Of a stretch of 64,000 nucleotides of DNA, positions 44,871 to 46,439 are shown in pieces. Where the stretch lies: assembly GCF_002854065.1 (NCBI RefSeq), contig NZ_CP024147.1, one strand, 5' to 3'. Source of the stretch: Escherichia coli (GTDB lineage: Bacteria; Pseudomonadota; Gammaproteobacteria; Enterobacterales; Enterobacteriaceae). The position numbers were made by a program, and so were the translations under genes. The notes below the pieces were generated by a model, which saw only the letters and a program-made list of their open reading frames with translations, was not told where the DNA came from and ran no database searches. Each line of letters starts with the position of its first letter. Position 1 is the stretch's first letter.

Positions 44871-45002
44871 AAAATATTCCATCAATCGTTTGTTAAAAGC
44901 GTAGATAACCATAGACTGGCCCCCTGAATCTCCAGACAACCAATATCACTTAAATAAGTGATAGTCTTAATACTAGTTTTTAGACTAGTCATTGGAGAAC
45001 AG

Positions 45003-45368
45003 ATGATTGATGTCTTAGGGCCGGAGAAACGCAGACGGCGTACCACACAGGAAAAGATCGCAATTGTTCAGCAGAGCTTTGAACCGGGGATGACGGTCTC
45101 CCTCGTTGCCCGGCAACATGGTGTAGCAGCCAGCCAGTTATTTCTCTGGCGTAAGCAATACCAGGAAGGAAGTCTTACTGCTGTCGCCGCCGGAGAACAG
45201 GTTGTTCCTGCCTCTGAACTTGCTGCCGCCATGAAGCAGATTAAAGAACTCCAGCGCCTGCTCGGCAAGAAAACGATGGAAAATGAACTCCTCAAAGAAG
45301 CCGTTGAATATGGACGGGCAAAAAAGTGGATAGCGCACGCGCCCTTATTGCCCGGGGATGGGGAGTAA
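45003..45368 (+). CDS. insC: IS2 InsC (OrfA)
   Basis: [56 protein letters not shown]...; 121 aa from the ATG at 45003. Confidence 0.9.
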
Positions 45369-46231
45369 GCTTAGTCAGCCGTTGTCTCCGGGTGTCGCGT
45401 GCGCAGTTGCACGTCATTCTCAGACGAACCGATGACTGGATGGATGGCCGCCGCAGTCGTCACACTGATGATACGGATGTGCTTCTCCGTATACACCATG
45501 TTATCGGAGAGCTGCCCACGTATGGTTATCGTCGGGTATGGGCGCTGCTTCGCAGACAGGCAGAACTTGATGGTATGCCTGCGATCAATGCCAAACGTGT
45601 TTACCGGATCATGCGCCAGAATGCGCTGTTGCTTGAGCGAAAACCTGCTGTACCGCCATCGAAACGGGCACATACAGGCAGAGTGGCCGTGAAAGAAAGC
45701 AATCAGCGATGGTGCTCTGACGGGTTCGAGTTCTGCTGTGATAACGGAGAGAGACTGCGTGTCACGTTCGCGCTGGACTGCTGTGATCGTGAGGCACTGC
45801 ACTGGGCGGTCACTACCGGCGGCTTCAACAGTGAAACAGTACAGGACGTCATGCTGGGAGCGGTGGAACGCCGCTTCGGCAACGATCTTCCGTCGTCTCC
45901 AGTGGAGTGGCTGACGGATAATGGTTCATGCTACCGGGCTAATGAAACACGCCAGTTCGCCCGGATGTTGGGACTTGAACCGAAGAACACGGCGGTGCGG
46001 AGTCCGGAGAGTAACGGAATAGCAGAGAGCTTCGTGAAAACGATAAAGCGTGACTACATCAGTATCATGCCCAAACCAGACGGGTTAACGGCAGCAAAGA
46101 ACCTTGCAGAGGCGTTCGAGCATTATAACGAATGGCATCCGCATAGTGCGCTGGGTTATCGCTCGCCACGGGAATATCTGCGGCAGCGGGCTTGTAATGG
46201 GTTAAGTGATAACAGATGTCTGGAAATATAG
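45326..46231 (+). CDS. insD: IS2 InsD (OrfB, DDE transposase)
   Basis: 301-aa ORF ...[39 protein letters not shown]...[45 protein letters not shown]... Confidence 0.9.
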
Positions 46232-46439
46232 GGGCAAATCCAAACCACTTATTTAACAACTTGAAAATAAGGTATTTTACCTGGGTTGTTATAAAAGGAT
46301 TGCATTGCGTAAACGCTTTTTATTTACAAAATAATGGGGAAGTGTTACTGCGATTGCGAAAAGTCTGAACCGATTGAATTAAGATAATATAGAAAATCAG
46401 ATACAACAAAAATGGCAGGTTGATGAGGTGAAGATAAAT

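Follow-up and report, generated by a model that had tools for sequence, protein, structure and literature searches.

An IS2 element splits the conserved upstream region of ygeQ at the glyU end of an ETT2 remnant in Escherichia coli

The DNA analysed here (the window) is a 64,000-nucleotide stretch of Escherichia coli contig NZ_CP024147.1 (RefSeq assembly GCF_002854065.1). It contains the glyU-proximal end of ETT2, recognizable by the gene order sctC–eivF–ghoT/ydcX-like–pkgA(ygeQ)–glyU–actS and collinear with TB06051 at 99.5–99.8% identity; the corresponding ETT2 genes are ECs3734–3737 (PMC3977695). A 233-bp spacer separates glyU from ygeQ, and an IS2 element is inserted within this spacer (Table 1).

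Table 1 Features of the ygeQ–glyU locus, in positions of the window; Box positions relative to the ygeQ ATG are given with the feature.
Feature	Position	Strand	Basis
Tandem IS1 pair, 23 bp apart	39421-40188 and 40212-40979		
Full-length ygeQ/pkgA, 536 aa, putative lipoprotein, GH15-fold	43260..44870 incl. stop codon	-	ORF, PGAP, AF2 model, PMC3977695
Box 2 (TGGTTATC, TGrTTAkC), -41 to -34 from ATG, still attached to ygeQ	44904..44911	-	Footprint
Left target-site duplication AACCA (TGGTT on - strand)	44907..44911	.	Single copy in empty-site genomes
IS2	44912..46242	+	Near-identity to K-12 IS2H, full identity to strain 61 IS2
IRL, 42 bp, end facing ygeQ	44912..44953	+	Inverted-repeat detection; length PMC3299598
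OrfA operator TTAAATAAGT (IS2 residues 39-48) and P_IRL (TGaTAGTCT)	44950..44967	+	Sequence matched to PMC3299598
insC/orfA, 121 aa, HTH_Tnp_1	45003..45368	+	ORF and domain
A6G programmed -1 frameshift window AAAAAAG	45320..45326	+	Sequence; PMC3299598
insD/orfB, 301 aa, rve integrase core (DDE)	45326..46231	+	ORF and domain
IRR, 41 bp, facing 3' side of glyU	46202..46242	+	Inverted-repeat detection; PMC3299598, PMC9330008
Right target-site duplication AACCA	46243..46247	.	Sequence
Box 1 (GTAAAATACCTTATTTTCAA, GTAA..ACCTTATwTTCAA), natively -78 to -55	46261..46284	-	Footprint
Box 1 core ACCTTATTTTCAA	46261-46273	-	Footprint
glyU, tRNA-Gly(CCC), transcribed towards IS2 and ygeQ	46440..46513	-	tRNA prediction, Rfam
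Promoter-like site upstream of glyU (TTGCTA-16-TATAAT, 10/12)	46531..46558	-	Consensus match only
Third IS1, inverted relative to the other two, between actS (ygeR) and xdhA; 9-bp duplication AACGCGGTA	47435-48202		

Three identical IS1 copies lie in the window. To the left of the tandem pair, the sequence is collinear with K-12 ygeA–araE–kduD–kduI–yqeF–yqeG up to 176 bp past yqeG, and to the right it resumes inside a truncated sctC. The tandem IS1 thus joins the yqeG side to truncated sctC, indicating a deletion that reaches from yqeH into the 5' part of sctC and takes out most of ETT2. The right-hand copy of the pair (40212-40979) and the third IS1 bracket, in inverted orientation, a 6.4-kb segment comprising sctC'–eivF–ghoT-like–ygeQ–IS2–glyU–actS. 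Since this segment is collinear with TB06051, no inversion has occurred.

The N-terminus of YgeQ is of the lipoprotein type (MKGKSALTLLLAGIFSC...). PGAP assigns an identical start to K-12 b2863, annotated as 'putative lipoprotein YgeQ', and to the 1611-bp gene of TB06051, annotated as 'glycoside hydrolase family 15 protein'. The Pfam family PF00723 (GH15) matches YgeQ at threshold only (22.1 bits against a gathering cut-off of 22.0), and no NCBIfam model matches the hydrolase or the GhoT-like ORF. The AF2 model (pLDDT 89.9) has the (alpha/alpha)6-barrel of the GH15 fold; among PDB structures it most closely matches the GH15-like domains of phosphorylase kinase alpha/beta and, next to these, fungal glucoamylases (E 4e-10 to 3e-5). 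The phosphorylase kinase matches fit the older name pkgA, under which the gene (ECs3736/ECs3737) was described as the last of ETT2, beside glyU (PMC3977695). Residues E268, E269, E341, E431, and E491 are invariant in the family alignment.

In other enterobacteria, YgeQ orthologues (58–76% identity) are found beside SPI-1-type T3SS genes encoding PrgH, needle proteins, InvH, and the secretin, and a GhoT/OrtT-like small ORF adjoins the YgeQ orthologue in two of three loci. These neighbourhoods suggest a conserved accessory module of that T3SS lineage.

The ygeQ ORF of the window is intact and 99.8% identical to the ORFs of strains without the IS. In a six-frame translation it extends to a 559-aa ORF (43260..44939) that begins at TTG 44939 inside the IS2 IRL, and the first 23 codons of this longer ORF consist of retained flank and IRL sequence. 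In E. albertii, an in-frame upstream ATG runs into a TGA stop. Because the upstream extension is made of IS2 sequence and the E. albertii ATG meets a stop, we take ATG 44870 to be the real start of ygeQ, in line with the earlier suggestion that the TTG extension is an ORF-calling artefact. The 559-aa ORF should be trimmed to 536 aa in annotation. An automatic gene caller has called the same 559-aa ORF on a contig assembled from public reads (contig positions 2-1681), and the artefactual protein is thus already in public protein collections.

The inserted element is a complete 1331-bp IS2 (IS3 family) with its transposase on the + strand. It is identical to K-12 IS2H at 1330 of 1331 positions, the sole mismatch being C for A at window 45517, and to the IS2 of E. 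coli strain 61 at 1331 of 1331. Its ends, TAGACTGGCCCC... (IRL) and ...GGGGCAAATCCA (IRR), are the same in seven other IS2 copies and form imperfect terminal inverted repeats of the lengths described for IS2 (PMC3299598). The OrfA operator, the weak inward extended -10 promoter P_IRL, and the A6G frameshift window have likewise been described for IS2 (PMC3299598), and in the sequence these parts, together with insC and insD, all read as intact. Length, identity to the reference, terminal repeats, 5-bp target duplication, orfA/orfB with A6G, and the HTH and rve domains all identify the element as IS2, and the copy is functional-looking from its sequence. The IRR of IS2 carries an outward -35 element that is used by the minicircle junction promoter (PMC3299598, PMC9330008).

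IS2 is flanked by a perfect 5-bp duplication, AACCA. In strains 61, 14EC007, K-12 MG1655, and TB06051, both flanks are joined by a single AACCA, and 3965 of 5426 complete E. coli genomes match a 300-bp reconstruction of the empty site without a break. The single AACCA and the collinear flanks at the empty sites argue for simple transposition with a 5-bp duplication. The sequence-only reading of the locus had proposed exactly this, a simple insertion with an intact duplication, and the comparison with related strains lacking IS2 that it called for, in the four reference loci and the 3965 genomes, bears it out. The geometry that it gave also holds: the gene lies about 30–40 bp away (41 bp from IS2 to ATG 44870, 29 bp to the alternative ATG 44882), glyU about 200 bp away (197 bp from the IRR end to the glyU 3' end), and insC and insD are transcribed away from the hydrolase gene, the IRL facing that gene and the transposase genes being divergent from it.

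None of the 5426 complete E. coli genomes contains the left junction, queried as 300 bp of flank and 300 bp of IS2. The right junction gives eight apparent matches in the same set, every one of them in two pieces, and the seven that were retrieved are IS2 copies elsewhere within ygeQ. A contig from public reads, ERR3970133 (3988 bp; 3 runs/samples), corresponds to window 44940..40953 with one mismatch. It contains 29 bp of the IS2 IRL, continues through the same flank, and runs into IS1, indicating that the left junction is shared. The presence of the junction in the public contig and its absence from the 5426 complete genomes indicate that the insertion marks a lineage, one that lies outside the RefSeq complete E. 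coli genomes; our guess, from the IS load, is that its host is an IS-rich genome of the E. coli/Shigella type. The 32-mer GCGTAGATAACCATAGACTGGCCCCCTGAATC would be a suitable probe for this lineage.

To delimit the region upstream of ygeQ, we compared three orthologues: that of E. coli, that of E. albertii (76% amino-acid identity, with the synteny actS–tRNA–GH15–ghoT–eivF–sctC kept), and an orthologue of 65% identity located in a different T3SS cluster. In these three, conservation of non-coding sequence upstream of ygeQ is confined to Box 1, Box 2, and a GGA that shortly precedes the ATG. The two boxes are separated by 13 nt of variable sequence (ACCTTATwTTCAA-N13-TGrTTAkC), and upstream of -80 nothing is conserved or alignable among the three. 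The upstream regions of more distant homologues (Yersinia and others) are unrelated. The GGA, at -10/-8, is likely the ribosome-binding site. The position (-67 to -34) and spacing of the boxes suggest a promoter with a leader of ~27 nt. K-12 retains the native upstream region, as do the empty-site relatives TB06051 and XJ34; on U00096.3, Box 2 occupies 2998862-2998869 and the Box 1 core 2998883-2998895, and the predicted transcription start would fall at about 2998855 on the - strand. The footprint, together with the geometry of the insertion, supports the earlier placement of IS2 in the presumptive promoter or 5' leader of the hydrolase gene.

Neither a consensus scan nor a weight-matrix scan finds a sigma-70 consensus promoter above shuffled controls in the native or the IS2-bearing upstream region, and we therefore give no weight to any single -35/-10 pair. 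The better-scoring promoter-like candidates of the native spacer in the weight-matrix scan all lie upstream of the insertion point. We also reject Box 1 and Box 2 as the site of a shared regulator, since the ETT2 region and the window hold no further copies beyond chance. Full-text literature searches for ygeQ and pkgA yielded nothing on a promoter or on expression, and neither ygeQ, glyU, nor any coordinate matching the locus is listed in SMRT-Cappable-seq tables.

On the other side of the insertion, the tRNA is the only match of the Rfam search. No terminator is predicted after glyU, and the fold there is no better than those of shuffled sequences (z = -0.03). The window, TB06051, and strain 61 share ~77 bp directly after glyU (window ~46354-46430) that K-12 and many other genomes lack (the genomes in which the empty-site query matches over positions 1-256 only). 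In further genomes with the same 536-aa protein, integrase-bearing phage-like elements lie between the usual actS/glyU neighbours and ygeQ, indicating that glyU is an active integration site. Upstream of ygeQ, these elements leave 251 bp or more of native sequence in place, with Box 1 and Box 2 untouched.

ygeQ is a frequent target of IS2. Within its ORF, the first ~490 bp (equivalent to ~44424-44712) hold at least eight other independent insertions of IS2-family elements, in strains 61, 14EC007, O177:H21, LZYWN_4, EJN001, 582, EPSSH018, and 2017.02.04CC. Six of them have their own mapped 5-bp duplication (CCCAC, GTACT, TATAG, GTTTC, GCATC, and GTTAG). The IS2 variants at these sites are 95.6–100% identical, several of them being diverged (95.6–98.3%). 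In most of these copies the IRR points towards glyU, a bias that is partly due to how the matches were found. The copies in other strains interrupt the ygeQ coding sequence, whereas the window copy alone is inserted in non-coding DNA upstream of it. The 5' portion of the gene thus looks like a regional hot target of IS2. Regional target preferences of IS2 have been linked to DNA curvature (PMC3299598), and GC content here is 31% in the spacer, 41% in ygeQ, and 50% in the window. Some form of ygeQ is present in 3988 of the 5426 genomes, with at least 80% of the gene in one piece in 2982, and the gene is truncated or split in about 1000 of the 3988. The truncations and the repeated IS2 insertions indicate a dispensable gene in a favoured target region, and the window IS2 is best seen as one more insertion in that target.

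What, then, would the insertion do to ygeQ? The duplicated target (TGGTT on the - strand) constitutes the first five bases of Box 2, and IS2 accordingly separates Box 1 from Box 2, Box 1 being now 1336 bp more distant from ygeQ, beyond the IRR. The 41 bp left between IS2 and the ATG are too short for a complete sigma-70 promoter and leader. We consider it probable, from the sequence, that by splitting the two boxes the insertion has made ygeQ a promoter-down or silenced gene. IS2 transposed to a point 41 bp ahead of the ATG, the IRL facing ygeQ and the transposase genes reading away from it; in the mechanism that we propose, this would have cut ygeQ off from the upstream half of its cis-regulatory region. 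Transcription from upstream, including any read-through from glyU, would meet 1.3 kb of IS2, antisense and untranslated, before reaching the gene. With the upstream promoter half and any read-through lost, ygeQ is expected to be down-regulated or silent, and the allele would be functionally equivalent to those of the many strains with IS2 inside the ORF. The site itself would probably have been set by the regional preference of IS2 for an AT-rich stretch, not by selection for a regulatory change. Some ygeQ transcription may survive the insertion, as Box 2 is still attached and begins with TGg, resembling an extended -10 element.

It is less likely, but a reading of some weight, that the insertion is neutral, either because ygeQ was already silent (for example, as a decaying AT-rich remnant of ETT2) or because it is driven from the retained 41 bp. 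The island around ygeQ is AT-rich, and in most conditions the gene may not be expressed in any case; most of ETT2 had already been deleted in the window by IS1, ygeQ is dispensable across E. coli, and the native spacer is without a strong predicted promoter either. Box 2 and the Shine-Dalgarno-like GGA, moreover, stay with the gene. Against neutrality stand the ORF, still intact and 99.8% identical to those of IS-free strains, and the conserved pair of boxes, now split, which argues for a functional upstream element.

A further, rather improbable alternative to the proposed loss of expression through a chance insertion is that IS2 has a genuine regional hot target at the 5' end of ygeQ/pkgA (compare the hot region of phage P1), where the repeated insertions reflect convergent selection, in several lineages, for silencing a lipoprotein of the T3SS island. 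If so, the window allele would be a natural promoter-only knockout of ygeQ.

Activation of ygeQ through the IRL end, by a hybrid or outward promoter (TGGAGA, or divergent initiation opposite P_IRL), appears highly doubtful. IS2 fusion promoters are documented as activators of neighbouring genes at ampC, acrEF, and neoR (PMC9330008), the IRL has a TGGAGA 17 nt from its tip that mirrors the TGGAAA of the IRR, and Box 2 directly abuts the IS2 end. The outward -35 element of the documented fusion promoters, however, lies in the IRR (PMC9330008, PMC3299598). Here it is the IRL that faces ygeQ, while the IRR is directed at glyU, which makes an IS2-derived hybrid promoter for ygeQ unlikely. At neither end is a -10 element found 16–18 bp from an IS-borne -35: on the IRL side, spacings of 17–19 nt from TGGAGA lead to TGGTTA, GGTTAT, or GTTATC, hexamers of which not one has the A2/T6 pair of a -10, and on the IRR side, 17 nt from TGGAAA lead to ACCACT in the flank, which is not a -10. 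Even the highest-scoring candidates derived from IS2 fall short of the mean top score obtained with shuffled sequence, and the consensus scan finds no promoter-like site at the IRL junction.

That the arrangement is an artefact of misassembly, or arrived by recombination between IS2 copies, is extremely improbable. Assembly errors classically arise at IS elements, and there are three IS1 copies within 9 kb; but the 5-bp duplication is perfect, the flanks are collinear with four IS-free reference loci, and an independent assembly of public reads yielded an identical left junction.

The window insertion is an ordinary event, involving a known element with known behaviour, and it leaves the current understanding of IS2 and of ETT2 unchanged. 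What is added here is the identity of the neighbouring gene and its relation to the K-12 genes, the lineage distribution of the insertion, the split of Box 1 from Box 2, and the argument against a hybrid-promoter mechanism at the IRL. The bearing of these points is chiefly on annotation: ygeQ looks intact in this genome but is probably expressed abnormally. The footprint gives a concrete, testable position for the ygeQ/pkgA promoter, the IS2 junction is usable as a lineage marker, and the cluster of independent insertions is a modest data point on target choice by IS2.

The ampC hybrid promoter offers a close comparison, as IS2 there likewise lies inside a promoter region, between upstream and downstream promoter elements. 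According to the account of Jaurin & Normark 1983 given in PMC9330008, the outward -35 there comes from the IRR, its spacing is the optimal 17 bp, and expression is raised. Unlike at ampC, the IRL faces ygeQ, and the junction offers no convincing -35/-10 pair. In the gal operon, polar IS2 insertions in the leader reportedly block the downstream gene (Saedler et al. 1974). IS2 lies between promoter and gene at both gal and ygeQ, the effect on ygeQ being one that we infer from sequence.

Among known cases, the closest includes K-12 IS2H (insC4/insD4, b2861/b2860), the same element at the same gene locus beside glyU. IS2H interrupts the ORF at window-equivalent 43734 and is oriented the other way round, whereas the window copy lies upstream of an intact ORF. 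IS2H is without a target duplication (AAGTT / ATAAA), in contrast to the perfect one in the window. As stated in the sequence-only reading, the K-12 IS2 is separated from glyU by ygeP and ygeQ; the two are the first 1137 bp of a single gene, cut by IS2H, and the 3' 487 bp of that gene are missing beyond it. The lack of a duplication and the missing 3' part are consistent with an IS2-adjacent deletion that made the K-12 ETT2 remnant, and K-12 ygeQ and ygeP are to be read as fragments of one gene for a GH15-fold lipoprotein, the gene that the window retains in full behind its own copy of IS2.
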